52,439 nucleotides of DNA from an uncultured Alphaproteobacteria bacterium (GCA_938074435.1 CALJEH010000090.1:1-52439); one strand, 5' to 3'. Shown: positions 37,688-52,439, counted from the stretch's first letter. Numbers and translations are program-made. The notes: a model not told the origin generated them from the letters alone.

Positions 37688-38518
37688 TTATTGTTTTGTG
37701 GTACTAATTTTATTTGAAACAAATAACAAATAAGAAAGTACAAAGTTAATAGACATAAATATTACAATTGTGGGGGCTGGAGCGCTGTCAATATAATATG
37801 ATCCAAAAACACCCAGGATTGAAGACAAAACCGTAGAGGATACTGCAACTAATAACATTCTTTTAAAATCCTTTGATACCAAAAATCCAGTTGCACCCGG
37901 TATTATCAAAAGAGCAATAGATAATATAATACCAACAGCTTTTAGATTTGAAACGATTACTAAAGATAAAATTACAAGAAGACCATAATGAAGAGTGGAA
38001 ATGTTTAGCCCAATTGATTTTGCGTGGATAATATCAAAACAAAAAACTAAAAGGTCCTTCCATTTTGCAAGTAAAATTATGATAATAAACAAGGATATCA
38101 GGGTTGAGAATATTAGGTCAGAATCATTAATCCCTAGTAAATTACCGAATAATATTTCATCTAAATGCACATTAGTTTCTACTTTTGTATATATGACAAT
38201 ACCGAGCGCAAACATTCCAGAAAATACAACACCCATAACTGTATCTTCTTTTATTCGTGAGTTGTTTTTTAAAAATCCAGTAGCTAAAGAACAAAACAAA
38301 CCAGCTATAAAAGCCCCAATAAACAATGGTAAATTAAGTATATAGGCAATAGCGATACCCGGTAACACTGCATGTGAGATTGCATCACCAATTAGTGACC
38401 AACCTTTTAATACTAGAAAACATGATAATATTGATGCTGGAATTGATATTAAAATAGCAATTAATAAAGCATTTAACATAAATTCATACTGAAATGGATA
38501 TATTAATAAATCAAACAT
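37688..38518 (-). CDS. sitD: Metal (Mn/Fe/Zn) ABC transporter permease, ABC-3 family
   Basis: ABC-3 permease pattern (KGWSLIGDAISHAVLPGIA). Fourth gene of an SBP-ATPase-permease-permease operon. Confidence 0.75.
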   Translation of the reverse strand: MFDLLIYPFQYEFMLNALLIAILISIPASILSCFLVLKGWSLIGDAISHAVLPGIAIAYILNLPLFIGAFIAGLFCSLATGFLKNNSRIKEDTVMGVVFSGMFALGIVIYTKVETNVHLDEILFGNLLGINDSDLIFSTLISLFIIIILLAKWKDLLVFCFDIIHAKSIGLNISTLHYGLLVILSLVIVSNLKAVGIILSIALLIIPGATGFLVSKDFKRMLLVAVSSTVLSSILGVFGSYYIDSAPAPTIVIFMSINFVLSYLLFVSNKISTTKQ

Positions 38519-39371
38519 TCTTGCTGTTTTTATTATTTTGTGAGATTACCTTCCAAATATAACCATATTTTGGTGAGAAGAAGAAAGCCAAAAGAAATAA
38601 GATAGTTTGCACTAATATAATAACACCGCCTGTCGCTCCATCAATGAAGTAACTAATGTACGTTCCAAATGCACATGAAAATACTCCAACGAATATACTT
38701 ATGAGTATTAATTTTGAGAATTTATCTGTTATTAGATATGCCGTTGCTCCTGGTGTAACAATCATTGCAATAACAAGAAACGCACCAACTGTTTGCATAG
38801 CAGCAACGGTAGAAACTGATAGTAATACAAAGAATATAAGTTTTAAAAATTTTATATTTAACCCCACTGTTTGTGCATGGTTTTCATCATAAAACAAAAG
38901 CATTAGATCTTTCCATTTCAATATTAATATTGAGAGTGTTATCACTGAAATTATGATTAATTGAAGGGTGTCTTGGGGAGTGATTGACAGAATATTTCCT
39001 AGAATTATTGTTTGGATATTAATTGGAGTAGGTGAAATTGAGATAATAAATAAACCAATTGCAAAAAATGAGGTAAAAATTATACCAATAATAGAGTCTT
39101 CTTTTAGATTTGTTTTTTCATTTAAATAGAGCATAGCAACTGCTGCAGCTGTTCCAGATATAAACGCACCTATTGTGAATGGAAGCCCTAAGATATATGC
39201 TCCAGCAACTCCAGGAACTATTGAATGGCTTAATGCGTCACCGATAAGTGACCACCCCTTCATTATTACAAAGCAGGATAAAAATGCACAAATCGCCCCT
39301 ACTAATGAACTAACAATAATTGCATTTCGCATATAAGAATAGTTGAGTGGCTCTAGGACTAAATCTATCAT
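38511..39371 (-). CDS. sitC: Metal (Mn/Fe/Zn) ABC transporter permease, ABC-3 family
   Basis: KGWSLIGDALSHSIVPGVA; paralogous to the downstream permease. Confidence 0.75.
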   Translation of the reverse strand: MIDLVLEPLNYSYMRNAIIVSSLVGAICAFLSCFVIMKGWSLIGDALSHSIVPGVAGAYILGLPFTIGAFISGTAAAVAMLYLNEKTNLKEDSIIGIIFTSFFAIGLFIISISPTPINIQTIILGNILSITPQDTLQLIIISVITLSILILKWKDLMLLFYDENHAQTVGLNIKFLKLIFFVLLSVSTVAAMQTVGAFLVIAMIVTPGATAYLITDKFSKLILISIFVGVFSCAFGTYISYFIDGATGGVIILVQTILFLLAFFFSPKYGYIWKVISQNNKNSKNV

Positions 39372-39378
39372 TTTATGA

Positions 39379-40119
39379 TTAGCTAACTTTTAAATTAAAG
39401 AAGTTTATGTGATTACCAAAAGTTTTAGTTAAATTTTCTTTTGTAAAAACTTCTCCTGTGGAGCCTTCTTTTTGTATTGTCCTATTTATCAAGATTGTTC
39501 TATCGCAGATATCTGGAACAATATTAAGATCATGTGTTGAAATGAGTATAATTTTATTTTTCTTTCTTTCTTTTTTGATGAGTTCAAGTATCGTTTCTTG
39601 TGTGTTAGTATCCACTCCTGTAAATGGTTCATCCAATAATAAGATCTTGCTTTCCTGAGCAAGCGCACGTGCGAGGAATACTCTTTTTTTCTGCCCTCCC
39701 GAGAGTTCACCAATTTGCCTGTCCTGTAATTTTTCCATTCCAACCTTCTGTAATGACTCTTTGACAATCTTAAAGTCATTAAATTTTGGCTTTCTCATAA
39801 AGTTCATATAAGAATATCTTCCCATCATAACTACATCTTTTACAAGTATAGGAAAGTCCCAATCGATTTCATCATTTTGAGGGACGTAAGAGATAAGATT
39901 GTTTTTTATAGCTAAGTCTATTGGATAATCATCAATGATAATCGAACCTTGATGAATTTTCAATATCCCCATAATTGAACGAAATAATGTAGTTTTCCCA
40001 GAACCATTAACTCCCAATAATGCTGTTATTGAGCCATTAGGAATGGAACAGGTGGCATCATGTAATGCCTCATGTCCATTCTTATAGAATACGCTCACAT
40101 TTTTAATTTCAATACTCAT
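39379..40119 (-). CDS. sitB: Metal ABC transporter ATP-binding protein
   Basis: Walker A GVNGSGKTT, signature LSGGQKKRVFLARAL, Walker B LLLDEPFTGVD. Confidence 0.8.
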   Translation of the reverse strand: MSIEIKNVSVFYKNGHEALHDATCSIPNGSITALLGVNGSGKTTLFRSIMGILKIHQGSIIIDDYPIDLAIKNNLISYVPQNDEIDWDFPILVKDVVMMGRYSYMNFMRKPKFNDFKIVKESLQKVGMEKLQDRQIGELSGGQKKRVFLARALAQESKILLLDEPFTGVDTNTQETILELIKKERKKNKIILISTHDLNIVPDICDRTILINRTIQKEGSTGEVFTKENLTKTFGNHINFFNLKVS

Positions 40120-40124
40120 GTTAT

Positions 40125-41039
40125 TTACTGTGCTGTAAGTCCTTTAATTACTGTAGAATATGTTATTGCAAGTAGGTCCAAATATGTTGGAACAGGGCCA
40201 TCCAATTCAGTTAAAGAGTCCACATATAGAATACCTCCATAGGAAATATTTGTTTCTCGCGCAATTTGCTGGGCAGGTTTTGGAGAAATAGTACTTTCAC
40301 TGAAGATAACTTTTATACCATTTTTATTTATGCTATCGATCACGTTCTTAACTTGTTTAGGTGATCCTTGCTGGTCTGCATTTATAGGCCATATAAATAA
40401 CTCATTTAACCCAAGATCTCTTGCAAGATAACTAAATGCACCTTCGCTTGTAACCAGCCATCTCTCTTTGGGATTAATTATGTCAATTTTTTTTGATAGA
40501 GGTAAGAGTACACCTTCAATTTTTAGAATATAATTTTCAGCATTTTCTTGGTATTGTTTACTATTTGACTCATCATATTCAATGAGCGCCTCTGTAATGT
40601 TTTTTACATACGCACGTGCCGAATCCATTGCCATCCAAGCATGAGGATTTGGTTTTCCGTTATAAGGTCCAGTGGATATTCCAATTGGCTCAATCCCCTT
40701 AGTTGCTAAAACAATTGGGACTTCATCTAAGCTATCATAAAATTGATCAAACCATAATTCTAATCCCATTCCATTATGAATAATAAGATCAGCGTCCTGA
40801 GCCTTAATAATATCTCTTGGTGTTGGTTGGTAATTGTGGATTTCTGCTCCTGGCTTTGTTATAGATTCAACAATTGCTAAATCACCAGTAATATTTTTTG
40901 TTATATCTGCAATAATAGTAAAGGTGGTAACGACCTTTAATTTTTCTGCTCTTGATACATCAGATAGAAGTAAAGTTAGAGATAAAAAAACAAAAAGACT
41001 AGCTTTAATATATTTGGTGATAGTGCGATGTAATTTCAT
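40125..41039 (-). CDS. sitA: Metal ABC transporter substrate-binding protein (TroA/PsaA/SitA-like cluster 9)
   Basis: Signal peptide MKLHRTITKYIKASLFVFLSLTLLLSDVSRA; motifs HNYQPTPRD, NPHAWM, FSESTISPK. The tracked start (41081) is a TTG 14 codons upstream and was replaced by ATG 41039. Confidence 0.8.
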   Translation of the reverse strand: MKLHRTITKYIKASLFVFLSLTLLLSDVSRAEKLKVVTTFTIIADITKNITGDLAIVESITKPGAEIHNYQPTPRDIIKAQDADLIIHNGMGLELWFDQFYDSLDEVPIVLATKGIEPIGISTGPYNGKPNPHAWMAMDSARAYVKNITEALIEYDESNSKQYQENAENYILKIEGVLLPLSKKIDIINPKERWLVTSEGAFSYLARDLGLNELFIWPINADQQGSPKQVKNVIDSINKNGIKVIFSESTISPKPAQQIARETNISYGGILYVDSLTELDGPVPTYLDLLAITYSTVIKGLTAQ

Positions 41040-41046
41040 AAAGAAT

Positions 41047-41081
41047 AGTATAATGAAAATGAGAATGATTTGCAACTGCAA
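41047..41081 (-). promoter_or_regulatory. Candidate sitA promoter with overlapping inverted repeat and Fur/Mur-like A/T-rich operator
   Basis: Minus strand reads TTGCA-GT-TGCAA (41081->41070). TTGCAA serves as -35, then a 17-nt spacer ATCATTCTCATTTTCAT (Fur-box-like AATCATT), then TATACT (41052->41047), then 7 nt to the ATG. Confidence 0.35.
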
Positions 41082-41189: not shown

Positions 41190-42353
41190 TCAAATCTGGG
41201 TATTACATACCCAATCTCTGATATTGTCTCCAAAGGCTTCGTATCCATTTTCACGTACAATTACTGTATCTTCAAGTTTTACAAAACCTACACCATCATA
41301 TTTTAGATCTGTTTCTATCGATAATACCATACCTGCTTCTAGAGGTTTTTCTTTATATGGTGCAGGATAGGGGATAACACCTTTATCGTATAGATGAGGC
41401 GCTTCATGTTGGATCATTCCCATACCATGAGCGACAAATTTATAATCAAGAGAATTATCGCATTTACTCAATTCATTATTAGCTGCTTCTAAGATATCAT
41501 TTCCAGTTATTCCAGCTCTAATAACTTTACGGGGTGCATCATTTATTGCACGAACTTGGGATAATAGATCTTTCATTAACTCAGTTGGTTCTCCCATCAC
41601 CGCCATTCTGCATAGATCTCCAAGATAACCGTCAAGATTTGCGCCAGAGTCAAGGGATAAGATATCTCCTTCATTCCAGAATAATTTTTCTGAAGGCGTT
41701 CTATTATAAGATGTTCCTGCTGCAATCAAACAATATTCAAAATTCATTCCTAGTGATGTTTCTTCTTCTTTTAAGGCTTGTGCAATTGATTTAGTTGATG
41801 ATCCTGGCTTTGCACTCTTCATCACTTTTTCCATTGAGTTTGTGATATTATCTGATGCTGTTTTAAGTAGTTTTAATTCATGATCTGTTTTTATTACTCT
41901 AAGTTCTTGCATTAAAACTAAAACATCTACAAATTCAGCATTTGGGAGGAGTTTTTGCAACATTAAAAATGTATCAGTAGGCGTATTACAAAATTCAATA
42001 CCTATTCTTTTATTTGAATAACCAAGTTTATAGATCAGTTTAGCTGCTTCTTCACCTGCCTGCTTCGTATTCCATTGGATGTTTTGGATATTATTTATCC
42101 AAAGAGGTTCAACTTCTTGTTGTTGTGGCTCGAGCATATGCCCTATATAAAATGCATCTTCAGGTTTCCCTTTTGGGTATCCAATTGTTGGTAAATACCT
42201 ACTGATACCGATTGCATCCTTTTGGGCAAAAAAGAAAAATTTATAGCCACCAAGTAAGTACTGAGCTGTATTTTTATCATTTATTAGTAAAAAATCTATA
42301 CCCTCATTATCTAGTAGTTTATCAAGTTTATTTTGATTAAATGGTAGTTCCAT
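41190..42353 (-). CDS. M24-family metallohydrolase with creatinase/prolidase N-terminal domain
   Basis: Metal ligands are retained (LDSGANLDGYLGDLCR, AHGMG, LSIETD, KLEDTV). Start moved to ATG 42353, behind AGGAACAAG; the tracked start overlaps the upstream gene by 26 nt. Confidence 0.7.
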   Translation of the reverse strand: MELPFNQNKLDKLLDNEGIDFLLINDKNTAQYLLGGYKFFFFAQKDAIGISRYLPTIGYPKGKPEDAFYIGHMLEPQQQEVEPLWINNIQNIQWNTKQAGEEAAKLIYKLGYSNKRIGIEFCNTPTDTFLMLQKLLPNAEFVDVLVLMQELRVIKTDHELKLLKTASDNITNSMEKVMKSAKPGSSTKSIAQALKEEETSLGMNFEYCLIAAGTSYNRTPSEKLFWNEGDILSLDSGANLDGYLGDLCRMAVMGEPTELMKDLLSQVRAINDAPRKVIRAGITGNDILEAANNELSKCDNSLDYKFVAHGMGMIQHEAPHLYDKGVIPYPAPYKEKPLEAGMVLSIETDLKYDGVGFVKLEDTVIVRENGYEAFGDNIRDWVCNTQI

Positions 42354-42363
42354 ATTCTTGTTC

Positions 42364-43566
42364 CTAAAATGTTGGGCTTTGAAAATCATTTTTTAGCCTG
42401 TTTTTACCCCATTGGCTAAATTGAAGGTCCTGATTGAAATGAATGTGACTAGAGCATGCTTGCACGTCCATAATTGCATTTGTGATAGGATGTCTATTAT
42501 AAATCCCATTTGCTCCTGAAACTTGTTGAATGATTGAGATTGCTTCCAATGTTATTTGAACGGCATATGCAGCATTTCTTTTATATTTTAATTTATTGTC
42601 TGTTGATATTTCGCCATCTTTATTCATAAGTTTTTCAGCTTCGATGCAGTCATTTCTCAATAATAATTTTGCAGCATCAATTCTTGATGCAATTTCTCCT
42701 ATGCGATTATGGACTGTTGGTATATCAGACATTTTCATATTTGAGGTACTTGTTGATCTCTTTTCTATCCATTCTACGAGTAAATCAAGACAAAGTTGAG
42801 CCCCCCCAATAGCACATCCAGCAAGACCGTGTCCACCTATTGCGGGTGTTGGGATTTGGTACATCAAATTAGGATTAGTGGGGACCCCTTTAAAGGAATG
42901 ACCCTCTTTATTTACCGTGAAAGATTGAAGTTTATATTCAGGAACAAAGAGTTCATTTATTCGAACAGAACAACTGCCAGTTTGCTTCATTCCATAGGTA
43001 TCCCAATCATTTAGTATCTCATAATCACTTTTATGAAGCACACATTGATGCCAATCTTTTTGACCATTATCATCCAATATGAAAGCAAATATACACCAGT
43101 CAGATATTTGAATACCTGAGCAAAAGTTCCATAGTCCTGTTAGTATAATTCCATCATCAACTTTTTTTGCATGACCTTGTTGGTAAATATTTCCAGCAGC
43201 AATTAGTGCATCTGGATTCTCTGACCATATTTCTTCTTGTATTTCAGGGCTGAAGAGGGCTAATGTTCTGTGATGTGATGCCATATTTGCCACTATCCAA
43301 CCCGTACTACAATCACCTCTAGATATGATCTCAGGGATGTCTAACCATGACTCAAAACTCAATTCTAATCCGCCCCATTGCTTCGGTTGGACATATCTAA
43401 ATAATTTTTCTTTGTGAATTAAATTTAATATATCATCTGAAATGTTTGTATTAGTATTATCAATATCTGAACGAATTTTTCTAATTTTAGGAACTAAAGA
43501 TAAAGCTATATTATTCGCTTGATCACTTGTAATAGGATTTAGTTGTTCAATATGTTTTTTTAGCAT
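42364..43566 (-). CDS. Acyl-CoA-dehydrogenase-fold flavin-dependent monooxygenase (HsaA/HpaH-C2/DszC-like oxygenase component)
   Basis: 400 aa. The N-terminal region (LFRYVQPKQWGGLELSFESWLDIPEIISRGDCSTGWIVANMASHH) matches the remembered group D two-component monooxygenases, which lack the ACAD catalytic-base context. Confidence 0.6.
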   Translation of the reverse strand: MLKKHIEQLNPITSDQANNIALSLVPKIRKIRSDIDNTNTNISDDILNLIHKEKLFRYVQPKQWGGLELSFESWLDIPEIISRGDCSTGWIVANMASHHRTLALFSPEIQEEIWSENPDALIAAGNIYQQGHAKKVDDGIILTGLWNFCSGIQISDWCIFAFILDDNGQKDWHQCVLHKSDYEILNDWDTYGMKQTGSCSVRINELFVPEYKLQSFTVNKEGHSFKGVPTNPNLMYQIPTPAIGGHGLAGCAIGGAQLCLDLLVEWIEKRSTSTSNMKMSDIPTVHNRIGEIASRIDAAKLLLRNDCIEAEKLMNKDGEISTDNKLKYKRNAAYAVQITLEAISIIQQVSGANGIYNRHPITNAIMDVQACSSHIHFNQDLQFSQWGKNRLKNDFQSPTF

Positions 43567-43601
43567 TAGATAAAATAAGATTTAACATAATTACTTGGGC
43601 T

Positions 43602-44690
43602 CTATTTAAAGTCGTCCTCAGATAAGTTTAGTAACCTCAATGCATTAAGTCCACAAATCTTCTCCCTTTCTTCTTCAGAAATACTTTCTATTTGATATAC
43701 ATGTTCCACTGGATCATGTTCTGCCATATCAGCTGGATAATCAGTTCCTATTGCAATATGATCAGCTCCATATTTTTTAATCAGAAATTCTAACTGATCA
43801 ATAGAGAATACTAGAGTATCAAAATAAAATTTCTTGAGATATGTTGTAGGTTTTTTAAATATCTTTTGACGACAATCGATTCTTGCTCCATATGCATGAT
43901 CCATTCTCGCAGCATAGCTTGCTGGAAATGCACCACCGTGTGATAAATAAAATTTAATATTCGGATATCTTTCCATAACACCATCGAAGATTAGATAATG
44001 AATGGCAACTGTTGTGTCTAATGGATTACCAATGACATTTAGCATGTAATGTTCGCCAAATCTGTCACTATAAAATGAAGATGGATGGATGAATATTAAG
44101 ATGTCTAACTCTTCGCACCTTTTCCAGAATGGTTCGAGCCTTTCAGCAGATAATTCATCTTTTCCAACTCTTGCTCCAATCTGAATTCCCCTAAAGCCTA
44201 ATTCATTCACGCATCTATCAAGTTCTTTTAGAGCTAAATCTGTATCTTGAAGAGGAACAGTCCCAAGTCCAGTGAGTCTTTTAGGGTGTATTTTTACTGT
44301 AGAAGCAATGTTATCGTTGATGATTTCAGAAGATTCAGCACAAAGATTTTTGTCTACCATGTAGTAGAATTGTTGTGGAGAACAAGATAGAGCAGAGACA
44401 TCAAGTAGGGATTTATTCATTTGGTCTAATCTTACATTTATATCTGTGAATGGAACCTCTCTATCCTCAAATTGTTTTTTATTTACTTGCTTTGTTAATT
44501 CGCTTGCCACGCCAACAGAAGGATGGAAATCTTTGGGCAAATGTGGTTTTACCAAATCATCAGCCGCAGGTGTTCTAACATGATTATGCAGATCAACAGT
44601 TAACGTTTTTGGCCTTTGAGATATACCACTTACGTGATCTCTCCCTGCTGTTGGACCATATGGTCTTATTTCAATATCATGTTTTGTCAT
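43602..44690 (-). CDS. Amidohydrolase_2 (ACMSD-type) metal-dependent decarboxylase/hydrolase
   Basis: Metal-ligand pattern VDLHNHV...IHPS...SHGGA...GTDYP is typical of the ACMSD, gamma-resorcylate decarboxylase and LigW family. SD GGAGAAG. Confidence 0.7.
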   Translation of the reverse strand: MTKHDIEIRPYGPTAGRDHVSGISQRPKTLTVDLHNHVRTPAADDLVKPHLPKDFHPSVGVASELTKQVNKKQFEDREVPFTDINVRLDQMNKSLLDVSALSCSPQQFYYMVDKNLCAESSEIINDNIASTVKIHPKRLTGLGTVPLQDTDLALKELDRCVNELGFRGIQIGARVGKDELSAERLEPFWKRCEELDILIFIHPSSFYSDRFGEHYMLNVIGNPLDTTVAIHYLIFDGVMERYPNIKFYLSHGGAFPASYAARMDHAYGARIDCRQKIFKKPTTYLKKFYFDTLVFSIDQLEFLIKKYGADHIAIGTDYPADMAEHDPVEHVYQIESISEEEREKICGLNALRLLNLSEDDFK

Positions 44691-44721
44691 ATAACTTCTC
44701 CAATTTTTCTATCATGTTATG

Positions 44722-44752
44722 TTGCCCAGTCAAATTAAGTGTGACTGGGCAA
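44722..44752 (-). other. Intercistronic stem-loop (TTGCCCAGTCA-9 nt-TGACTGGGCAA)
   Basis: A perfect 11-bp GC-containing inverted repeat between the alpha/beta-hydrolase stop (44761) and the amidohydrolase start (44690). No U-run follows on the transcribed strand. Confidence 0.6.
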
Positions 44753-44760
44753 TAAGTCTA

Positions 44761-46005
44761 TTATTCCCACCAATGCAAGGCATCTTTATTTTCACCTTGT
44801 TTAGCATTTGGTCCACTGCCGTTTGTTCTGAGATACATTTTCTTATCATGACCTGCTTTTATTTTTCCATTAAAAACATCTACAAGCCAATCCATACACA
44901 TCATATGACAGTCATGTCGATCTTGCCCTGTACCTTTGAACATAACTGCTTGGTGATATGTATCCTCATAAACCCACAATTCTTTTGGCGCAGTAACTTT
45001 ATCATAGAAATTATAGACCAATTCAACAGGACTTCTTGAATCATATTCTCCAACTGTAAGAAGAATTGGACATTTAATATCTTTTTCTCTTCCTTCAACG
45101 GTCATTTGTGCAACAATTTTATCAAGTTCTTCTTCACTTTGAGTGCCTGTGAGATAGCCAAATAATTGTTTATATCTTGGTGAAAAAGTATCCAGAATAT
45201 AATATTTATCTAGATAAGAGGCCCATGGTCCTACAACACCCTTAATTCTAGGATCACCAGATGCAGCAACTTCAAGGCCCCAATGCGAACCCATTGATAC
45301 AGCAAATATACCAATTTTATCTTTATCAACCTCTGGTCTTGTTTCTAACCAATCAACAATACTTAATACAGCTCGTTCATAATTGCCATGTGTAAGTTTT
45401 TGATTTCGGATGTTACTCATGCCCTGTCCAGGTCCATCAATAACAAGTAGGTGCATACCCCTTGCATGCGCTTCAACAACTTTTGGATCTGGCCACATTT
45501 CCTTAGTCATATCACATCCGGGAATGAATATCATTGTTGGCGCGACATCCACGCCAGGACATAAAAAGAAATTACATTGTAATTGCATATCTTCAAAAGG
45601 AACTTCAACTCTTTCAATTGTGTAAGGTGCTAGTTCGATTACTTTCTCAAAATTAGCAATACATCTACCATGCAGGTATCTTTTTTCATCATTTGTTTCT
45701 AAAACTGGATGCTGTGCAGCAGCAAATTTTGCAGAAGCCCTGTAATATAAATCAAAAGCAGTTGATTTATGACCTGCTACTTCTTCTTCTTGAGCAACTT
45801 TTTCTAGCCTCTGGCCTTGTCTACCTAGATGCTTGGAGATCTGACCATGGCTTTTAACAGTGCCAGGTAATTCTCTTCCTTCTTCATCCCAGTGAAAAAC
45901 ACGACCTGTTTCCTTAACAATCCAGTCATATATCCACTGATGTCCGTCTCTATTTAATCTTGGTGTACGCATCAATAAATCTCCCATATTTTGCTTGAGT
46001 TTCAA
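44761..46005 (-). CDS. Alpha/beta hydrolase with an N-terminal helical extension of about 130 aa
   Basis: Nucleophile elbow FAVSMGSHWG and an acid/His region near the C-terminus (VGEYD, YEDTYH). The overall layout recalls the 2,6-dihydropseudooxynicotine hydrolase/FrsA-like group (from memory, not searched). Start may be 45987 or 45972. Confidence 0.6.
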   Translation of the reverse strand: MKLKQNMGDLLMRTPRLNRDGHQWIYDWIVKETGRVFHWDEEGRELPGTVKSHGQISKHLGRQGQRLEKVAQEEEVAGHKSTAFDLYYRASAKFAAAQHPVLETNDEKRYLHGRCIANFEKVIELAPYTIERVEVPFEDMQLQCNFFLCPGVDVAPTMIFIPGCDMTKEMWPDPKVVEAHARGMHLLVIDGPGQGMSNIRNQKLTHGNYERAVLSIVDWLETRPEVDKDKIGIFAVSMGSHWGLEVAASGDPRIKGVVGPWASYLDKYYILDTFSPRYKQLFGYLTGTQSEEELDKIVAQMTVEGREKDIKCPILLTVGEYDSRSPVELVYNFYDKVTAPKELWVYEDTYHQAVMFKGTGQDRHDCHMMCMDWLVDVFNGKIKAGHDKKMYLRTNGSGPNAKQGENKDALHWWE

Positions 46006-46125
46006 AACTCAAAAAATTAATTTTACTAACTATAATTTATAGGGTAAAAAACATTTATTTGGAACATAAAAATAAGAAATACTCTCTGTTAGACTACTTA
46101 ATATCCAAAGTTTAAGATAAAAAAA

Positions 46126-47343
46126 ATGAATCTATCAATCAGTTTCCCTTCTTTCCAAAGTAAGGAATTTCAAAAATATACTGCAGGTAATTTCTTTGCA
46201 ATGAATGGGCTATGGATTAATAGAGTGATTATTGGATGGCTTGGCTGGGAATTAACAAATCTTGCATCTTGGGTTGGTTTTTTATCTTTTCTACTTTTTG
46301 CCCCAACAATTTTTGCAGGTCCCATATTTGGGGTGATAGTTGATCGTATTGATATAAAAAAATTCGCAATCTATACACAGTCTATTATTTCAGCGACAGT
46401 ACTATTCTTGTGGGTACTATATTTTTTCAATTTATTGAATATTATTAATTTATGCATTATAGCACTTGTAATTGGTATATTTACAAGCGCGGATAGAATT
46501 ACTCGACACACCCTTGTTCCAAGAATAATTGAAAAAAAAAATCTTGTTAATGCATTAGCGATACACGGGATTAATTTCAATACTGCTCGACTACTTGGTC
46601 CTGCATTTGCAGGTGTTTTAATTCAATTCACCAGTTTTTCATTTACAATTTTTATAAATTTCTTGTGTTTGTTAGCTATGCCAATTGCACTGATCACTAT
46701 TAAAGTGGCTGAAAAAGTTTCAGAAGAAAAAGAAAGAAAGAATATTTTATCAGAGTTTTTTGATGGTGCAAAATTTGCTATTAGTCACAGTGTCATTTTA
46801 GAGGCTTGCGCAATTACAGCGCTCTATTCTCTTTTTGCTCGTGGAGCAATTGAAATTCTTCCAGCTGTAGCAGGAGGGATTTTTAGTGTTGGTCCCGAAG
46901 GCCTTGGCCATATGATGGCAACTGCTGGTGCAGGCGCGCTTGTTGCAGCCATATTTATTGCTATGAGAAGGTCAAAAAATCAGGAAAGGGGGATTCCCTT
47001 TAGAGTTTATTTTTCATCATTTCTTGGCTTATTGGCTGTTATAATTCTCGGTATATCTTCTAATTGGTATGTCGCACTTTCTGCTATATTCATAATGGGA
47101 TTCTGTATGACTATAAATGGAATAGATCTTCAGGCTGTTGTTCAACTAGAGCTTAATGACACATACAGAGGCAGGGTTATGAGTCTATGGATTCTTCTTG
47201 TTATTGGTCTTGCAGCAATTAGCTCTATTCTGATGGGTGCTTTTGGTGACATTCTAGGCATAGAGAATACCCTAATATCATTTTCAATTTTTGGGATTAT
47301 TTCGTTGATAACGCTATTATTAACAATAAATAAAAAATATTGA
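46126..47343 (+). CDS. MFS transporter (MFS_3/EntS-like)
   Basis: About 12 hydrophobic segments; the N-terminal FRxYxxGxxxSxxGxW-like pattern (FQKYTAGNFFAMNGLWINRV) is typical of that subfamily. Confidence 0.7.
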   Translation: MNLSISFPSFQSKEFQKYTAGNFFAMNGLWINRVIIGWLGWELTNLASWVGFLSFLLFAPTIFAGPIFGVIVDRIDIKKFAIYTQSIISATVLFLWVLYFFNLLNIINLCIIALVIGIFTSADRITRHTLVPRIIEKKNLVNALAIHGINFNTARLLGPAFAGVLIQFTSFSFTIFINFLCLLAMPIALITIKVAEKVSEEKERKNILSEFFDGAKFAISHSVILEACAITALYSLFARGAIEILPAVAGGIFSVGPEGLGHMMATAGAGALVAAIFIAMRRSKNQERGIPFRVYFSSFLGLLAVIILGISSNWYVALSAIFIMGFCMTINGIDLQAVVQLELNDTYRGRVMSLWILLVIGLAAISSILMGAFGDILGIENTLISFSIFGIISLITLLLTINKKY

Positions 47344-47383: not shown

Positions 47384-48376
47384 ATGAAAGCAGCTGTAAT
47401 TGGCTTGGGTTGGTGGGGTAAGGTAATTGTAAAAAACCTTATTAAAAGTAAAAAAATAAATGTTATTTGTGGTGTTGATCAGGACTTATCCAACCTTTCT
47501 GATTTTGGAAAAGAATACAACATTGAACTGAGGAACTCATATGAATCTGTTCTTGAAGATCAAAATATAGATGCTGTAATTCTTGCAACGCCTAATCGAC
47601 TTCATCACATTCATATTATTCAAGCTGCGGAAGCTGGAAAACAAATTTTTTGTGAAAAACCACTCTCATTAAGTTCGCAAGATGCCAAAGATGCAATAGA
47701 GGTATGTAATAACCGAGGAATTGTTCTTGGTTTAGGGCATGAGAGACGCTATGAATCTGCAATGAAAAGTTTATTTCAACATGTAAGAAATGGTGATATC
47801 GGAAATGTGCTTCATGTTGAAACTAACTTCAGTCATGATTTGTTTAAAACACTTGATAAAGACAATTGGAGATTCAGTCCAATAGATGCGCCTGGAGGAG
47901 GCTTTACTGCAAGAGGAATTCATTTAACAGATTTTATGGTCCATATGTTTGGCAGAGCAAAGAAAGTGTATTCAACCATGTCAAGTATTGCATACGAAAA
48001 GCCAAGGATTGATACAATGTCTGCAAATATAGAGTTTTTGACTGGGATTACAGGTATTGTTTCGGTATCTATTGCCACTCCCTTTTATGGTAGATATACC
48101 GTATTTGGTGATAAGGGTTGGATTGAAGCGAGAGAAATTAATAATTTTGAACATGATGATCCAGGCGAGCTCGTTCTTTGTAAAGAAGGGGGTGATAGAA
48201 TTATAACTACACATACTCACACAAATACTGTACTTGAAAATTTTGAGTGTTGGCATGATGCTGCAGTTAACGGCGAAAAATATCCAATTTCAACTGATGA
48301 GATGATTGCAAATATTGAGATATTTGAAGCGATTGTAAAATCAGGTGATTCAGGAGAGGTTGTAGAAATTATTTAG
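47384..48376 (+). CDS. Gfo/Idh/MocA family NAD(P)-dependent oxidoreductase (paralog of 36705-37682)
   Basis: MKAAVIGLGWWGK, FCEKPLSL, APGGGFTARGIHLTD. SD AAGGAG. Confidence 0.8.
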   Translation: MKAAVIGLGWWGKVIVKNLIKSKKINVICGVDQDLSNLSDFGKEYNIELRNSYESVLEDQNIDAVILATPNRLHHIHIIQAAEAGKQIFCEKPLSLSSQDAKDAIEVCNNRGIVLGLGHERRYESAMKSLFQHVRNGDIGNVLHVETNFSHDLFKTLDKDNWRFSPIDAPGGGFTARGIHLTDFMVHMFGRAKKVYSTMSSIAYEKPRIDTMSANIEFLTGITGIVSVSIATPFYGRYTVFGDKGWIEAREINNFEHDDPGELVLCKEGGDRIITTHTHTNTVLENFECWHDAAVNGEKYPISTDEMIANIEIFEAIVKSGDSGEVVEII

Positions 48377-48932
48377 AAGTTATCTGCGCTCTTTTGTTTG
48401 CTTCATCAAAGACTTTATGCGAGTGTTCAACTTTATATTCACTTTCAACCAATGTCTCGGGTTCCCATTCACTCTTAGGAGTGTCAAAAAAATCACCGCC
48501 ATACACATGTAAAGCACAAGTAAATTTATTTGTTGGATTAATTACAGAATGAATAATATCACTGCCGAGTGGAACAGTATCAAATTTTTCGAGTGATTTT
48601 GCGCCGGCTGCTTCAATTTTACCGTGTTCTTTATTATCTAATCGTCGCCAAAAAATATTATCCTCACGTCCTGAGTAAACACCAATTGCAGCCCACATAT
48701 TATGATTGTGGGGCATGATTGTCATATTTGGCGTCCAAATTACATTTATTATTGAAAATTTATCAGATTGGTAAAGTTTTTGAATCCCACCTTTTGTTGG
48801 CTCACCAAGTTTCTTGAATATACCAATTGGATCTTCTACTGCTTTTGAGAGTATATCAATGACAGCCTTGTGGTTGTTTATTTTATCGATACGGGCATCA
48901 CATTCTTCAATAAAATTTTCTAGATCAAACAT
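48369..48932 (-). CDS. Cupin-fold metal-dependent protein (COG5553/cysteine-dioxygenase-like group)
   Basis: PHNHNMWAAIGVYSGREDNIFWRR plus a second His region (IHSVINP) fit the remembered pattern of this double-stranded beta-helix family. Confidence 0.5.
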   Translation of the reverse strand: MFDLENFIEECDARIDKINNHKAVIDILSKAVEDPIGIFKKLGEPTKGGIQKLYQSDKFSIINVIWTPNMTIMPHNHNMWAAIGVYSGREDNIFWRRLDNKEHGKIEAAGAKSLEKFDTVPLGSDIIHSVINPTNKFTCALHVYGGDFFDTPKSEWEPETLVESEYKVEHSHKVFDEANKRAQITSK

Positions 48933-49028: not shown

Positions 49029-50195
49029 ATGAAAAAAAAGCCAAGAATATTAAATAAAGTTTTTGCACTAGATGATCTAGAGTATCATGCAATGAGACAT
49101 TTACCAAGGCCAGTTTTTGGTTATATTTCAGGTGGTTCTGAAAGAAATCAAACACTTGACATGAATTTACATGACCTGCAAAAAATAAAATTTATACCAA
49201 ATATCTTGAGGGATGTTTCGGAACGATCAATCATTACATCACTGTTCGGTAATAAATGGAATGCGCCATTTGGTATCTCACCAATGGGGGTCAGCGCGCT
49301 TGCCGCATACAGGGGTGATATAGTTCTAGCAGAAGCTGCTAGAAATATGAATATACCAATGATCATTAGTGGATCATCCCTAATACCAATGGAAGAAATT
49401 ATAAAATTAGCACCTGAGACATGGTTCCAAGCTTATTTACCAGGTGATCATGATAAAGTTGAAAAGTTAGTTCTTCGTGTTAAAAATGCAGGTTTTAAGA
49501 CACTCATTCTAACAGTGGATGTATCAGTCTTAGCGGGTAGAGAAAATAATCTTAGAAATGGTTTCTCAACTCCTTTAAGACCCTCTTTTAGATTAATGTA
49601 TGATGGAATGATCAGACCCAAGTGGACTTTAAATACATTTTTAAGAACGCTTTTAATCCATGGTATGCCTCACTTTGAGAATTTTCTTGCTGATAGAGGT
49701 GAGCCAGTTTTTTCAGCTTCCATAAATCGTGATTTTGGTAAAAGGTCTAACTTGAACTGGGAGCATCTAAAGCAAATAAGAGACTTATGGGATGGTAATC
49801 TTATAGTAAAGGGAATATTAAACAAAGATGATGCGATTAAAGCGCAGAGCATGGGTGCAGATGCTATTATAATATCAAATCATGGCGGCAGACAACTTGA
49901 CTCAGCCATATCATCAATCAAAGCTCTCGAGAACATAAAGCCAGTAATCAAAGGTGACTTTAAAATATTTGTTGATAGTGGTTTTAGGAGAGGTACGGAT
50001 GTCATTAAAGCCTTGGCTATTGGAGCAGATTTTGTCTTTATCGGGCGACCATTTTTATATGCAGCTTCTATAGCAGGTCAAGAGGGGGTTGAACACTCTA
50101 TACAATTATTAATGGAAGAAATTGATAGGGATATTGCCCTATTGGGAGTTAATTCTATTGATGAATTGAATACAAATTTATTGTACAAAGACTAA
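49029..50195 (+). CDS. FMN-dependent alpha-hydroxy acid dehydrogenase/oxidase (LldD/mandelate dehydrogenase family)
   Basis: Signature SNHGGRQLD, TIM-barrel motifs (VDSGFRRGTDVIKALAIGADFVFIGRP); 388 aa. Confidence 0.85.
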   Translation: MKKKPRILNKVFALDDLEYHAMRHLPRPVFGYISGGSERNQTLDMNLHDLQKIKFIPNILRDVSERSIITSLFGNKWNAPFGISPMGVSALAAYRGDIVLAEAARNMNIPMIISGSSLIPMEEIIKLAPETWFQAYLPGDHDKVEKLVLRVKNAGFKTLILTVDVSVLAGRENNLRNGFSTPLRPSFRLMYDGMIRPKWTLNTFLRTLLIHGMPHFENFLADRGEPVFSASINRDFGKRSNLNWEHLKQIRDLWDGNLIVKGILNKDDAIKAQSMGADAIIISNHGGRQLDSAISSIKALENIKPVIKGDFKIFVDSGFRRGTDVIKALAIGADFVFIGRPFLYAASIAGQEGVEHSIQLLMEEIDRDIALLGVNSIDELNTNLLYKD

Positions 50196-51160
50196 ATAAT
50201 ATCAAATAATCCCGTACTTTTTAGATCTTCTTTTAATTCCTGTTTTTTTTCATCACTTATTTTAATAACTGGTGGCCTTGTCCTTCCACCTTTCATACCA
50301 ATGAGTTCTTGCCAATATTTCATTTCACTGATAGGCATTCTGCCACTATTCCAATATCCCATAATCCATTTTGCATGGAGTTCCCTGAGTGGCTGAATTG
50401 ATTTAGCTATCTCAGTGGCTCTATTTATCTCACCATTTAATGCAGCATCTGTATAATCTTTTAGAGGCAACCAACCTTTTGATTGATATAGATGTGGATT
50501 GTAATTTACAAGCCACTGCAGTCCGAGTTGAGTCATACTGGTTAGCCATGGCGCTTCATCTGCTACAGATATCACTATATCTTTTCCTACAGAGTCTATT
50601 ATTGAGTGAGTAGAAGCTGGCGACCCATCAGCTTGCTTATATCCGCAGATATTTGGAAGTTTTGATAGCCGTTTTGCGAGATTAGCATTTATTGGATGAC
50701 AATTTTGAGGAACATTGAATAGGATTATACCAATGTCAACTCTTGAGCAGATGTATTCATAAAATTGATAGACAGTTTCGTCGTCTCTGGCTGCAACATA
50801 TGGTGTGAGCACAATTACAAAATCATAACCAATTTCTTGAGCATGTTTTGCTAGTGTAACTACTTGCTTTACTGACTGATGGTGACAACCTGCAATCATA
50901 GGGATCCTATTTTGTGCTTGGTCAAGCATTACTTCATGTGCATGCATTCTTTCATTATCAGGCATTGACCAAAATTCAGCAATATTACCTGAACAATAGT
51001 GCCCATCAACTTTTATGTTCTCGATTATATGATCCATATTTGATCGATTAGCAACATCATCAAAATTATCATCTTCATCCCAGCAATATGGCATGGCAGT
51101 CCATATTCCCTTCAATAACTCTCTAGCTGCTTCTTTAGATTCTTTCTTCGAATATTTCAT
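50192..51160 (-). CDS. DapA/dihydrodipicolinate synthase-family (class I aldolase/dehydratase) protein
   Basis: Family pattern IPMIAGC...VLTPYV...ILFNVP...ICGYKQADG, with the Schiff-base Lys position. The sequence is divergent, so the substrate is unknown. Confidence 0.6.
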   Translation of the reverse strand: MKYSKKESKEAARELLKGIWTAMPYCWDEDDNFDDVANRSNMDHIIENIKVDGHYCSGNIAEFWSMPDNERMHAHEVMLDQAQNRIPMIAGCHHQSVKQVVTLAKHAQEIGYDFVIVLTPYVAARDDETVYQFYEYICSRVDIGIILFNVPQNCHPINANLAKRLSKLPNICGYKQADGSPASTHSIIDSVGKDIVISVADEAPWLTSMTQLGLQWLVNYNPHLYQSKGWLPLKDYTDAALNGEINRATEIAKSIQPLRELHAKWIMGYWNSGRMPISEMKYWQELIGMKGGRTRPPVIKISDEKKQELKEDLKSTGLFDII

Positions 51161-51171
51161 AATAATTTTAA

Positions 51172-52104
51172 CTATTTTGGATCTTTTTTACCAAAGGGTA
51201 CATCATCTATTCCTTCGCGTTCTTCAAGCCCAGCCATACCTCTGAGAATTTCATAAAATGATACAGTATCCTTTTCAGCATATCCTTTTTCATATGCGGC
51301 TTGATAGATCTGTGATAGAACGGATGTCATTAATGTAGGTGACCCAAGTATCTGTCCTTGTTCAATCATCAGTCTGTTATCTTTGAGTGAAGTCTTTATT
51401 TGACCTTGTTTTGAGTAGTCAGCATTTATCATTTTTGGACCTTTATCTATCATTGTTTTTGATGATGCTGCGCTGTCCTTTAACACTTCTAATAAATTTT
51501 CTTGTTCAAGTCCCGCTTTGTGTCCAAGAACCAATCCTTCTGCAAGAGCAAGTCTATTTCCAGCAAGTATAAGATTAATAACTAATTTGGTTCTTGCGCC
51601 TGATCCTACAGGCCCCATGTAGTAGGCGGCTCTACTAAAGCCTTCAAAATATCCCTTACATACATCGAAGTCTTCTTTTTTACCACCCGCGATTACTATT
51701 AAATCACCGGCTCTTGCCATTGTACTCGTTCCACTAACTGCTGAATCCAAAAATTTTATTCCTTTTTCTGCAAGATCTTTTGAGAGGGATATAGAATCTT
51801 CTGGTCTAGAAGTGGTAGTGTCACAAATATAAAGATTATCTGATGTCACTCCTTCTGCAATCCCATTAGACCCTACAGCTGCATCTCTTGCAATTGTACT
51901 GTTTGGGAGTGACATTATTACACAATCAACATCCTTAGCTGCATCAGCTGGAGTATTGACCGGAGTTCCTCCTTGTTCTCTTAATTCATCCATTCTGTTG
52001 GGGTCAACATCAAATCCTTGAATAATAAACTGTGATTTTCTCATATTTAGAATGAAAGCTTGCCCCATCAGACCCATACCTACAATACCAACTTTTTTAA
52101 CCAT
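51172..52104 (-). CDS. NAD(P)-dependent beta-hydroxyacid dehydrogenase (3-hydroxyisobutyrate dehydrogenase family)
   Basis: VGIVGMGLMGQAF Rossmann motif and a 6PGDH-type C-terminal domain. Start moved to ATG 52104, behind GGAGAGAG. Confidence 0.8.
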   Translation of the reverse strand: MVKKVGIVGMGLMGQAFILNMRKSQFIIQGFDVDPNRMDELREQGGTPVNTPADAAKDVDCVIMSLPNSTIARDAAVGSNGIAEGVTSDNLYICDTTTSRPEDSISLSKDLAEKGIKFLDSAVSGTSTMARAGDLIVIAGGKKEDFDVCKGYFEGFSRAAYYMGPVGSGARTKLVINLILAGNRLALAEGLVLGHKAGLEQENLLEVLKDSAASSKTMIDKGPKMINADYSKQGQIKTSLKDNRLMIEQGQILGSPTLMTSVLSQIYQAAYEKGYAEKDTVSFYEILRGMAGLEEREGIDDVPFGKKDPK

Positions 52105-52118
52105 TTCTCTCTCCATTT

Positions 52119-52439
52119 CTATAGTGTTATTACAATTTTACCAATTTGACTATTACTCATCATGTATTCACGACCTTGATCTATCTCATCAAAGTGGAAT
52201 ACCTTATCGATTATTGGTTTGTTATTATCTGAATCAAGGTGAGGGAGTATATCTCTTTTAAAACCTTCAACTGTTTGAATAATATCATCCTTTGTTACAA
52301 AAGCATTTGATATACCATGTATACTGTATCTCTGTGCGTGAACTTTTCGAATGTTTATTGGAACAGTATCCATTCCATCCATGTAGCCTACATTAACAAT
52401 AATTCCCTTAAATGATAGAGCATTCATAGCATCATTAAA
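52119..52439 (-). CDS. Zinc-type alcohol dehydrogenase/quinone oxidoreductase family, C-terminal part (5' end beyond the window)
   Basis: The frame stays open to the window edge (FNDAMNA...). The C-terminal ...GKIVITL ending is typical of MDR/QOR proteins. Confidence 0.6.
   Translation of the reverse strand, partial: FNDAMNALSFKGIIVNVGYMDGMDTVPINIRKVHAQRYSIHGISNAFVTKDDIIQTVEGFKRDILPHLDSDNNKPIIDKVFHFDEIDQGREYMMSNSQIGKIVITL

Follow-up and report, generated by a model that had tools for sequence, protein, structure and literature searches.

A four-gene block of hydrolase, decarboxylase-type and monooxygenase genes in a marine OCS116 bacterium is a young fusion of two older gene pairs

In the gamma-resorcylate (gra/tsd) systems of Rhizobium and Rhodococcus, a two-component flavin hydroxylase, with a reductase that may be encoded separately, acts after a non-oxidative decarboxylase of the Amidohydro_2 family, and an intradiol (hydroxyquinol) dioxygenase performs ring fission. 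A molybdenum hydroxylase, a monooxygenase, the decarboxylase PicC of the Amidohydro_2 family and steps catalysed by alpha/beta hydrolases and amidases make up the toolkit of the Alcaligenes faecalis pic pathway and of the Paenarthrobacter nicotinovorans pyridine pathway for nicotine. In marine oligotrophs, N-heterocyclic osmolytes are catabolized through the homABCDER homarine operon and the tgn trigonelline genes; hom encodes an FAD-binding HomA beside HomB, the peptidase HomC and the aldehyde-dehydrogenase-like HomD, with no alpha/beta hydrolase or Amidohydro_2 enzyme (PMC13236597). Here we describe a block of four minus-strand genes in a 52,439-nucleotide stretch of DNA from an uncultured alphaproteobacterium (GCA_938074435.1 CALJEH010000090.1:1-52439; hereafter the window), which encode an alpha/beta hydrolase (ABH), an Amidohydro_2 enzyme (AH2), a flavin monooxygenase (FMO) and an M24 metallohydrolase (M24). 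Since the genes are contiguous in only one genus, split or separate in relatives and absent as a unit outside the family, the block is a young, genus-level fusion of an older ABH-AH2 pair with an older FMO-M24 pair.

The window corresponds to contig C90 in a genome of 1.26 Mb that is 90% complete; the window's G+C content is ~33% and it carries the alphaproteobacterial two-piece tmRNA. Near-identical loci occur in metagenome-assembled and single-amplified genomes labelled OCS116 cluster, Hyphomicrobiales or 'Rhodobiaceae', and the host is an uncultured marine bacterium of the OCS116 cluster (Hyphomicrobiales). Within its genus the four genes are contiguous in 13 of 15 genomes, embedded in an island with the order QOR-HIBADH-DHDPS-FMNdh-cupin-GFO-MFS-ABH-AH2-FMO-M24-metal ABC-GFO, where FMNdh is an FMN-dependent 2-hydroxy-acid dehydrogenase. 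In the sister genus (G015, G018), ABH-AH2 is split from FMO-M24 by 4.85 kb of opposite-strand genes encoding three molybdenum hydroxylase subunits (LSM) and a TauD-family dioxygenase; an orthologue of this molybdenum hydroxylase (80% identity) is found in the host on contig C104, amid unrelated genes. Two deeper genera (G016 and G017, with 2.2-Mb and 4.1-Mb genomes) have AH2 and ABH adjacent in swapped order, and in G017 they end an eight-gene plus-strand operon, QOR-HIBADH-DHDPS-RidA-M20-PcaC-AH2-ABH (L017 2631-10934, G017:C4), whose order recurs in G016 with FMNdh adjoining. The G017 PcaC passes its equivalog cut-off (TIGR02425, 162.5 bits versus 155.7); the host genus has lost the PcaC, RidA and M20 partners. 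The 532-aa quinone oxidoreductase (QOR) of this operon is unusual in being fused to ankyrin repeats at its C-terminus. All four genera keep FMO next to M24; in G017 this pair is found on a different contig, immediately preceded by an arylformamidase-like 'cyclase' gene. An earlier reading of the window, made from the sequence only, had filed the neighbouring hydroxy-acid and aldolase genes as a separate cluster; in G017 and G016 these genes are joined with AH2-ABH, and the ABH-AH2 pair historically belongs with them as its ancestral partner cluster.

Beyond the family the arrangement dissolves. In 42 further families of the order, no close homologue of ABH, AH2 or FMO was found. When one genome of each prokaryotic species was scanned, 514 FMO relatives were recovered, from which 80 loci were kept for analysis; 65 of these lie outside the family, at 39-49% identity and mostly in Burkholderiales metagenome-assembled genomes. 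The four-gene unit was absent at these 65 loci, with M24, AH2 and ABH missing in all but two or three cases, and the recurrent neighbours were TctC carboxylate receptors (35 loci), VOC-type dioxygenases (9) and molybdenum hydroxylase large subunits (9). A fixed partner for FMO beyond OCS116 was therefore rejected, as M24, AH2 and ABH do not recur and TctC receptors alone do. Among the loci sampled for ABH, AH2 and M24 homologues (47-71% identity), gene contexts varied and no fixed operon was seen; M24 homologues adjoin Amidohydro_2 and molybdenum hydroxylase genes in Labrys and G034 (the latter a high-GC locus in which open reading frame calls were mostly uninformative), or ACADs and TPP enzymes in Nitrospinota. 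Searches of the protein collection with ABH, AH2 and M24 yielded hundreds to thousands of homologues per subfamily, mostly metagenomic. The sequence-only reading had treated the block as a unit and had named a lack of conservation as such in other genomes as grounds for abandoning it. Those grounds were found to hold by half, because the block is contiguous in one OCS116 genus and is not conserved as a unit beyond it, being split in the sister genus, divided into two operons in the deeper genera and absent outside the family.

The enzyme families themselves recur together within the host genome. Hidden Markov models built from the host's own paralogues, run on its 1266 open reading frames, identified eight AH2-family, five ABH-family and eight M24-family members. 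On three occasions (contigs C90, C79 and C29) members of all three families were located within 12 genes of one another, versus 0 of 5000 label shuffles, and ABH-AH2 pairs within 10 genes were found four times against 0.37 expected (p ~0.0008). Each of the three islands also has a flavoenzyme, which is a luciferase-like monooxygenase on C79 and an ACAD on C29. On C79 the ABH' and AH2' genes overlap by 34 nt. The combination of families is probably meaningful, a threefold toolkit in 1.26 Mb being hard to ascribe to chance, and three islands drawn from the same toolkit point to parallel pathways for related substrates. Amidohydro_2 genes number 7-9 in OCS116-genus genomes of 1.0-1.6 Mb, 14-16 in relatives of 2.2-4.1 Mb, and 0-11 (median ~1) in the 2-8-Mb genomes of the 42 other families of the order, which amounts to about ten times as many per Mb in the streamlined lineage. 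The threefold toolkit and the Amidohydro_2 enrichment are the more notable results; the block itself is unsurprising in kind.

All four genes are real, intact in at least 13 congeneric genomes and under strong purifying selection: against one congener, at a synonymous divergence of 0.4-0.8, dN/dS was 0.006 for ABH, 0.014 for AH2, 0.076 for FMO and 0.040 for M24. The open reading frames and the intergenic gaps of 70, 35 and 10 nt reported from the sequence were reproduced, the gaps with the favoured starts of ABH and M24. For ABH the ATG at 45972 (GGGAG upstream; homologues of 402-404 aa) is likelier than the originally listed TTG at 46005, and for M24 the ATG at 42353 is favoured (AGGA upstream; homologues of 385-387 aa), which couples the M24 start to the FMO stop (TAGGAAC...ATG). 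AH2 has its own ribosome-binding site, GGAGAAG. A perfect hairpin separates ABH from AH2; most congeners and the sister genus have a strong hairpin of unrelated sequence at this position, and in three it is weak. This hairpin is likely an mRNA-stability or partial-termination element, which would give differential stability or partial termination after ABH. Promoter-like hexamers are present on the minus strand at 46048-46020, in the intergenic region between ABH and the divergent MFS gene, and the consensus-based promoter and terminator scan overall performed no better than on shuffled sequences and so was uninformative. As originally observed, no flavin reductase, ring-cleavage dioxygenase or regulator gene lies within the block, nor is there a flavin reductase gene anywhere in the window. 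The missing reductase is a local gap only, as three flavin reductase genes (PF01613) are encoded on other host contigs (C87, C74 and C113).

The enzyme types first assigned to the four genes proved right by Pfam, PDB matches and catalytic residues. ABH matches the FrsA-like, Hydrolase_4 and AXE1 families, and its best PDB sequence match is 2,6-dihydroxypseudooxynicotine (DHPON) hydrolase (2jbw, 7.7e-15), followed by an Ayg1-like polyketide-shortening hydrolase. An AlphaFold model of ABH built with 35 sequences (predicted local distance difference test, pLDDT, 86.3; predicted TM-score, pTM, 0.89) returned 2jbw as the top Foldseek match (8e-21, TM 0.72/0.80), then FrsA, Wdyg1p/Ayg1p and AntI, with an identity to 2jbw of only ~22%. 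The triad S226 (in VSMGS), D311 and H340 is invariant in 35 homologues, and its Ser and Asp align with S217 and D300 of 2jbw. Judged by this model, ABH is a member of the FrsA / DHPON hydrolase / Ayg1-AntI clade; to our knowledge, FrsA itself has no agreed activity. The long N-terminal extension first reported for ABH is present, but because the model matches 2jbw, FrsA, Wdyg1p/Ayg1p and AntI it corresponds to the helical N-domain that defines the clade and is no addition to it. This N-domain is rich in invariant histidines (H27, H42, H48, H68, H88 and H101). ABH is 95-99% identical across the genus despite saturated synonymous sites, far above the conservation of its neighbours; it is 87% and 75% identical to its counterparts in other genera, versus 59% and 46% for FMO.

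AH2, FMO and M24 were placed relative to characterised enzymes by their PDB and NCBIfam scores. AH2 matches PF04909 at 134 bits and no NCBIfam model. Its best PDB match is human ACMSD (2.7e-54), compared with ~1e-21 to 1e-24 for gamma-resorcylate decarboxylase and ~1e-16 for 2,3-dihydroxybenzoate (DHB) decarboxylases. Residues H35, H37, H202, H251, D317, R262 and R77 are invariant in 29 homologues; the HxH/H/D metal site and catalytic His (ACMSD His224/228) align with the ACMSD residues, and R262 aligns with the ACMSD second-subunit Arg, R235. ACMSD R47 aligns to E75, with the invariant R77 two residues on, and AH2 has an extra 30-residue N-terminus in which R17, H19 and R26 are invariant. The family match, metal site and catalytic His assign AH2 to the ACMSD / COG2159 decarboxylase branch of Amidohydro_2.

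FMO contains the Acyl-CoA_dh_2 C-terminal domain (PF08028, 89 bits), and its best PDB matches, at ~1e-36 over the full length, are 2jbr, 3afe and 2rfq, which represent the C2 oxygenase of p-hydroxyphenylacetate hydroxylase and HsaA. It falls below the NCBIfam equivalog cut-offs of both HsaA (211.6 bits versus 450) and HpaH-C2 (172 versus 650). His120 and His396 of C2 correspond to H98 and H374 of FMO, both invariant in orthologues, and Ser146 corresponds to an invariant Gly125. FMO, a single-copy gene in the host genome, is by these comparisons predicted to be the oxygenase component of a group D, ACAD-fold monooxygenase. M24 combines PF00557 (Peptidase_M24, 107 bits) with PF01321 (Creatinase_N, 47 bits). 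All five metal ligands (D, D, H, E, E) align with those of the prolidase 3q6d, with a 9-residue insertion before the fourth; M24 is thus not a metal-free creatinase, in agreement with the original assignment. It scores far below the named equivalogs PepQ, PepP, DoeA, DddP and MetAP (best 72 bits versus cut-offs of 420-850), with 43-45 bits against 575-613 on the DoeA models and 38 against 600 on DddP.

Tentatively, and at slightly less than even odds, we favour a reading in which the block is a real, expressed-looking string of two fused catabolic modules for a small carboxylated (hetero)aromatic or enolic acid, with reductase and ring cleavage supplied in trans. The first module would comprise ABH, as a serine hydrolase of the retro-Claisen C-C / lactone hydrolase clade, and AH2, as an ACMSD-type decarboxylase; the second would pair FMO, as a reduced-flavin-dependent hydroxylase, with M24, as a metal-dependent C-N hydrolase. 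A small carboxylated, hydroxylated aromatic, N-heteroaromatic or enolic acid would enter the cell, possibly via the divergent MFS_3 transporter. By analogy with its clade, ABH could hydrolyse an acyl, beta-diketone or lactone bond, and AH2 would remove, non-oxidatively, a carboxylate adjacent to a hydroxyl or enol. FMO may then hydroxylate or open the ring using FMNH2 or FADH2 from one of the three reductases encoded elsewhere, and M24 may cleave a remaining amide or amidine bond. Dioxygenolytic ring fission, if any, would fall to the single intradiol dioxygenase on another contig (C63), a protein of 292 aa that scores 178 bits on the catechol 1,2-dioxygenase model versus a cut-off of 392. Its gene is flanked by a DAO-like FAD oxidoreductase and by rpoZ, smpB and dapA, outside any catabolic cluster.

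Each module has held together, ABH and AH2 remaining adjacent through an inversion of their order and FMO and M24 remaining adjacent in four genera, which supports the favoured reading. A (hetero)aromatic or enolic acid is suggested because relatives add a molybdenum hydroxylase, PcaC and an arylformamidase-like cyclase, and because TctC receptors adjoin FMO homologues. Several observations weigh against it. The block enzymes have no characterised homologue closer than ~35-40% identity. The two modules are separate transcription units in every genus but the host's, so that a shared pathway follows only from proximity and family recurrence. Since a hairpin lies 3' of ABH in most species, ABH may be expressed apart from AH2, FMO and M24. 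The shuffle test overstates specificity because catabolic genes cluster in general, and the nearby cupin, a relative of thiol dioxygenases, indicates that the island mixes organosulfur with other catabolism. Finally, the 90%-complete genome has no Peptidase_M29 (PF02073, NicX/PicD-type), LigB, 3-hydroxyanthranilate dioxygenase (3-HAO; PF06052) or clear maleylacetate reductase, which argues against the textbook picolinate/nicotinate, kynurenine and gamma-resorcylate routes. The original proposal of a pathway for small aromatic or N-heterocyclic acids is therefore kept alive in its general form by the recurrence of the toolkit and the partners found in relatives, but its specific guesses, such as picolinate and nicotinate, are unsupported or weakened by these absences.

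Table 1. Positions of the block and of associated features; coordinates refer to the window unless another contig is named.
Feature	Position	Strand	Description
ABH	44761..45972 (ATG 45972) or 44761-46005 (TTG 46005)	-	Predicted FrsA / DHPON-hydrolase / Ayg1-AntI clade alpha/beta hydrolase, 403 aa
AH2	43602..44690	-	Predicted ACMSD-like Amidohydro_2 metal-dependent decarboxylase or hydrolase, 362 aa
FMO	42364..43566	-	Predicted flavin monooxygenase of the two-component type (group D), oxygenase component with ACAD fold, 400 aa
M24	41190..42353 (or 41190-42389)	-	Predicted metal-dependent pita-bread hydrolase with Creatinase_N domain, 387 aa
Hairpin	44722..44752	-	Perfect 11-bp hairpin without U-run between ABH and AH2; folds at -17.8 kcal/mol
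Divergent intergenic region	45973..46125		AT-rich; separates ABH from MFS gene
MFS_3 (EntS-like) transporter	46126..47343	+	Divergent from ABH; Pfam MFS_3 124 bits, EntS model 107 bits
FMN-dependent 2-hydroxy-acid dehydrogenase (+); DHDPS-like, HIBADH-like and QOR-like genes (-)	49029..52439		Pfam, NCBIfam; QOR-like gene (52119-52439) cut by window end
Cupin	48369-48932	-	Probable thiol dioxygenase, 187 aa
Metal ABC operon (also loci L036-L049)	37688-41081		3' of M24; sitABCD-like in some congeners
C79 island	C79, 173-17277		Molybdenum hydroxylase-SDR-M24-unknown-NIPSNAP-ABH-AH2-GMC-unknown-luciferase-like monooxygenase-BKACE-TauD-2HADH-CMD-GFO-AH2-GFO
C29 island	C29, 2052-21176		AH2...ACAD-GST-2HADH-ABH-cyclase-TPP enzyme-M24-E1ab/E2-HIBADH-MFS_3
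Intradiol dioxygenase	C63:1100-1978	-	Only intradiol dioxygenase of the host

The divergent MFS gene beside the block, noted from the start, encodes an MFS_3 transporter that is a candidate substrate importer (Table 1). It is syntenic in the genus and sister genus, and paralogues lie near the AH2-family gene on contig C24 and in the C29 island. At the other end of the block, the metal ABC operon is sitABCD-like and 80-93% identical in some congeners; in others a paralogous metal ABC operon, just 26-42% identical, takes its place at this position. The end of the window truncates the QOR-like gene, the rest of which is on contig C51; that contig also carries the next genes of the island, encoding a small alpha/beta hydrolase and another M24 paralogue, in an order that agrees with the closed genomes G005 and G013.

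The cupin has no Pfam match, and a first AlphaFold model of it (pLDDT 44) was unusable; it was placed with a profile of 27 homologues. This profile matches bacterial cysteine dioxygenase type I and the 3-mercaptopropionate and mercaptosuccinate dioxygenases (1.5e-18 to 4e-13). Residues H75, H77, G88 and E90 are invariant, with H128 and H142 nearly so, in a family of 1544 representative homologues. The cupin is probably a thiol dioxygenase by these profile matches, and it was rejected as the missing ring-cleavage enzyme on the grounds that it groups with the cysteine and 3-mercaptopropionate dioxygenases.

The separation of the modules in other genera can be read differently. It is possible, but rather unlikely, that the two modules are unrelated and were merely juxtaposed by a streamlined genome, with ABH-AH2 acting in a QOR-HIBADH-DHDPS-FMNdh pathway, FMO-M24 acting in another, and the 35-nt junction representing a deletion scar. 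The separate operons of G016 and G017 and the 4.85 kb of opposite-strand genes flanked by the modules in G015 and G018 fit this explanation, as do the different phyla and contexts from which the nearest outside relatives of each gene come and the unequal conservation of ABH (87%/75%) and FMO (59%/46%) towards the same relatives. It accounts less well for the recurrence of the same families together in three host islands, for the M24 homologues that adjoin Amidohydro_2 and molybdenum hydroxylase genes in Labrys and G034, and for the sister genus, where the modules still lie within 5 kb of each other. Moreover, genome G007 is without all four genes, although it is only 75% complete.

A more specific chemistry, a pyridine-carboxylate pathway of the picolinate, nicotinate or quinolinate type, appears improbable. 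In such a route a molybdenum hydroxylase acting in trans would hydroxylate beside the ring nitrogen, FMO would add a second hydroxyl or open the ring, AH2 would decarboxylate in the manner of PicC, and ABH and M24 would deformylate and deamidate the products. The molybdenum hydroxylase found inside the block in the sister genus, with its orthologue kept in the host, speaks for this scheme, and molybdenum hydroxylases also adjoin M24 and AH2 in Labrys and lie near FMO homologues in nine loci. An arylformamidase-like cyclase precedes FMO-M24 in G017, and the closest solved relative of ABH is the DHPON hydrolase of nicotine catabolism, an enzyme that acts directly after a molybdenum hydroxylase. 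Yet the genome encodes no Peptidase_M29 (NicX/PicD-type) 2,5-dihydroxypyridine dioxygenase, the host molybdenum hydroxylase sits amid unrelated genes, the known homarine route uses other families, and ABH presumably lies outside the alpha/beta clade of the NicD/PicE deformylases. Processing of catecholate xenosiderophores for iron release, with ABH as ester hydrolase, M24 as DHB-amino-acid amidase, AH2 as 2,3-dihydroxybenzoate decarboxylase and FMO as catechol hydroxylase beside an EntS-like MFS and a metal ABC transporter, is very improbable, because its attractions (the EntS match at 107 bits, the presence of a metal ABC operon always 3' of M24 in genus and sister genus even as a non-orthologous paralogue, and the ~1e-16 match of AH2 to DHB decarboxylases) are outweighed by the far closer match of AH2 to ACMSD, the position of ABH outside the Fes/IroE clade, the G017 FMO-M24 pair with no metal transporter nearby, the lack of any TonB receptor or siderophore-binding protein among the genes seen, and the fact that EntS-type proteins are exporters.

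The OCS116 cluster comprises uncultured oligotrophs that bloom in the upper mesopelagic after convective mixing and are thought to consume semi-labile or recalcitrant dissolved organic matter (PMC7575717, PMC8957919). No genome-centred study of OCS116 was found in the literature collection that was searched for mentions of the clade. By retaining 7-9 Amidohydro_2 genes and three islands with the same toolkit, a genome of 1.3 Mb spends scarce coding space on one substrate class. On a bolder and unlikely view, a lineage-specific modular toolkit of expanded ACMSD-like Amidohydro_2 enzymes, FrsA/DHPON-type hydrolases and M24 hydrolases, each joined by a flavoenzyme, in three islands per 1.3-Mb genome would degrade semi-labile dissolved organic compounds of the sea such as carboxylated N-heterocycles or phenolic acids, and the block would be an undescribed pathway for an abundant, unrecognised metabolite whose ring would be opened by the ACAD-fold monooxygenase rather than by a dioxygenase. 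Naming the substrate class would connect the OCS116 lineage with a specific fraction of the carbon and nitrogen pool of the sea and would give four uncharacterised enzyme subfamilies a function. The block is a clean, testable and well-defined target in an ecologically relevant uncultured oligotroph rather than a discovery of new biology.

Comparison with described systems bears out the initial impression that the block matches no operon that can be named: by their scores no characterised operon corresponds to it and none of the four enzymes has a characterised orthologue, every NCBIfam equivalog score of the four being far below its cut-off. [quoted passage not shown] Identity with the homarine/trigonelline operon was rejected, however, because the gene families differ from those described for hom; in particular, no aldehyde dehydrogenase or FAD-binding reductase-type gene is present in or beside the block. 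AH2 resembles the ACMSD of the kynurenine and 2-nitrobenzoate pathways in its fold, its HxH/H/D site and catalytic His and the Arg contributed from the second subunit, and differs in having Glu75 at the position of R47 and an extra N-terminus. Because the host genome lacks 3-HAO, a kynurenine-pathway role for AH2 was rejected. The PcaC/PcaD system offers a similar logic of decarboxylase followed by (enol-)lactone hydrolase, and PcaC directly precedes AH2-ABH in G017; in contrast, ABH scores 32 bits on the PcaD model versus a cut-off of 256, the host genus has lost PcaC, and no PcaHG or PcaB was seen.

The pic and nicotine pathways agree with the block in enzyme toolkit, down to DHPON hydrolase as the closest solved relative of ABH, but only the sister genus has a molybdenum hydroxylase within the block, the host has no NicX/PicD dioxygenase, and the block has M24 where these pathways use a nitrilase or an isochorismatase-type amidase. 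The gamma-resorcylate systems share the decarboxylase and two-component hydroxylase types, and the host encodes one intradiol dioxygenase in trans; they differ in that AH2 is much nearer to ACMSD, the host has no clear maleylacetate reductase, reductase and dioxygenase are not in the cluster, and ABH and M24 are without a gra counterpart. Since each known analogue has at least one defining component that is absent here or below cut-off, these comparisons support a view of the block as a variant of a (hetero)aromatic-acid cluster assembled from uncharacterised subfamilies.

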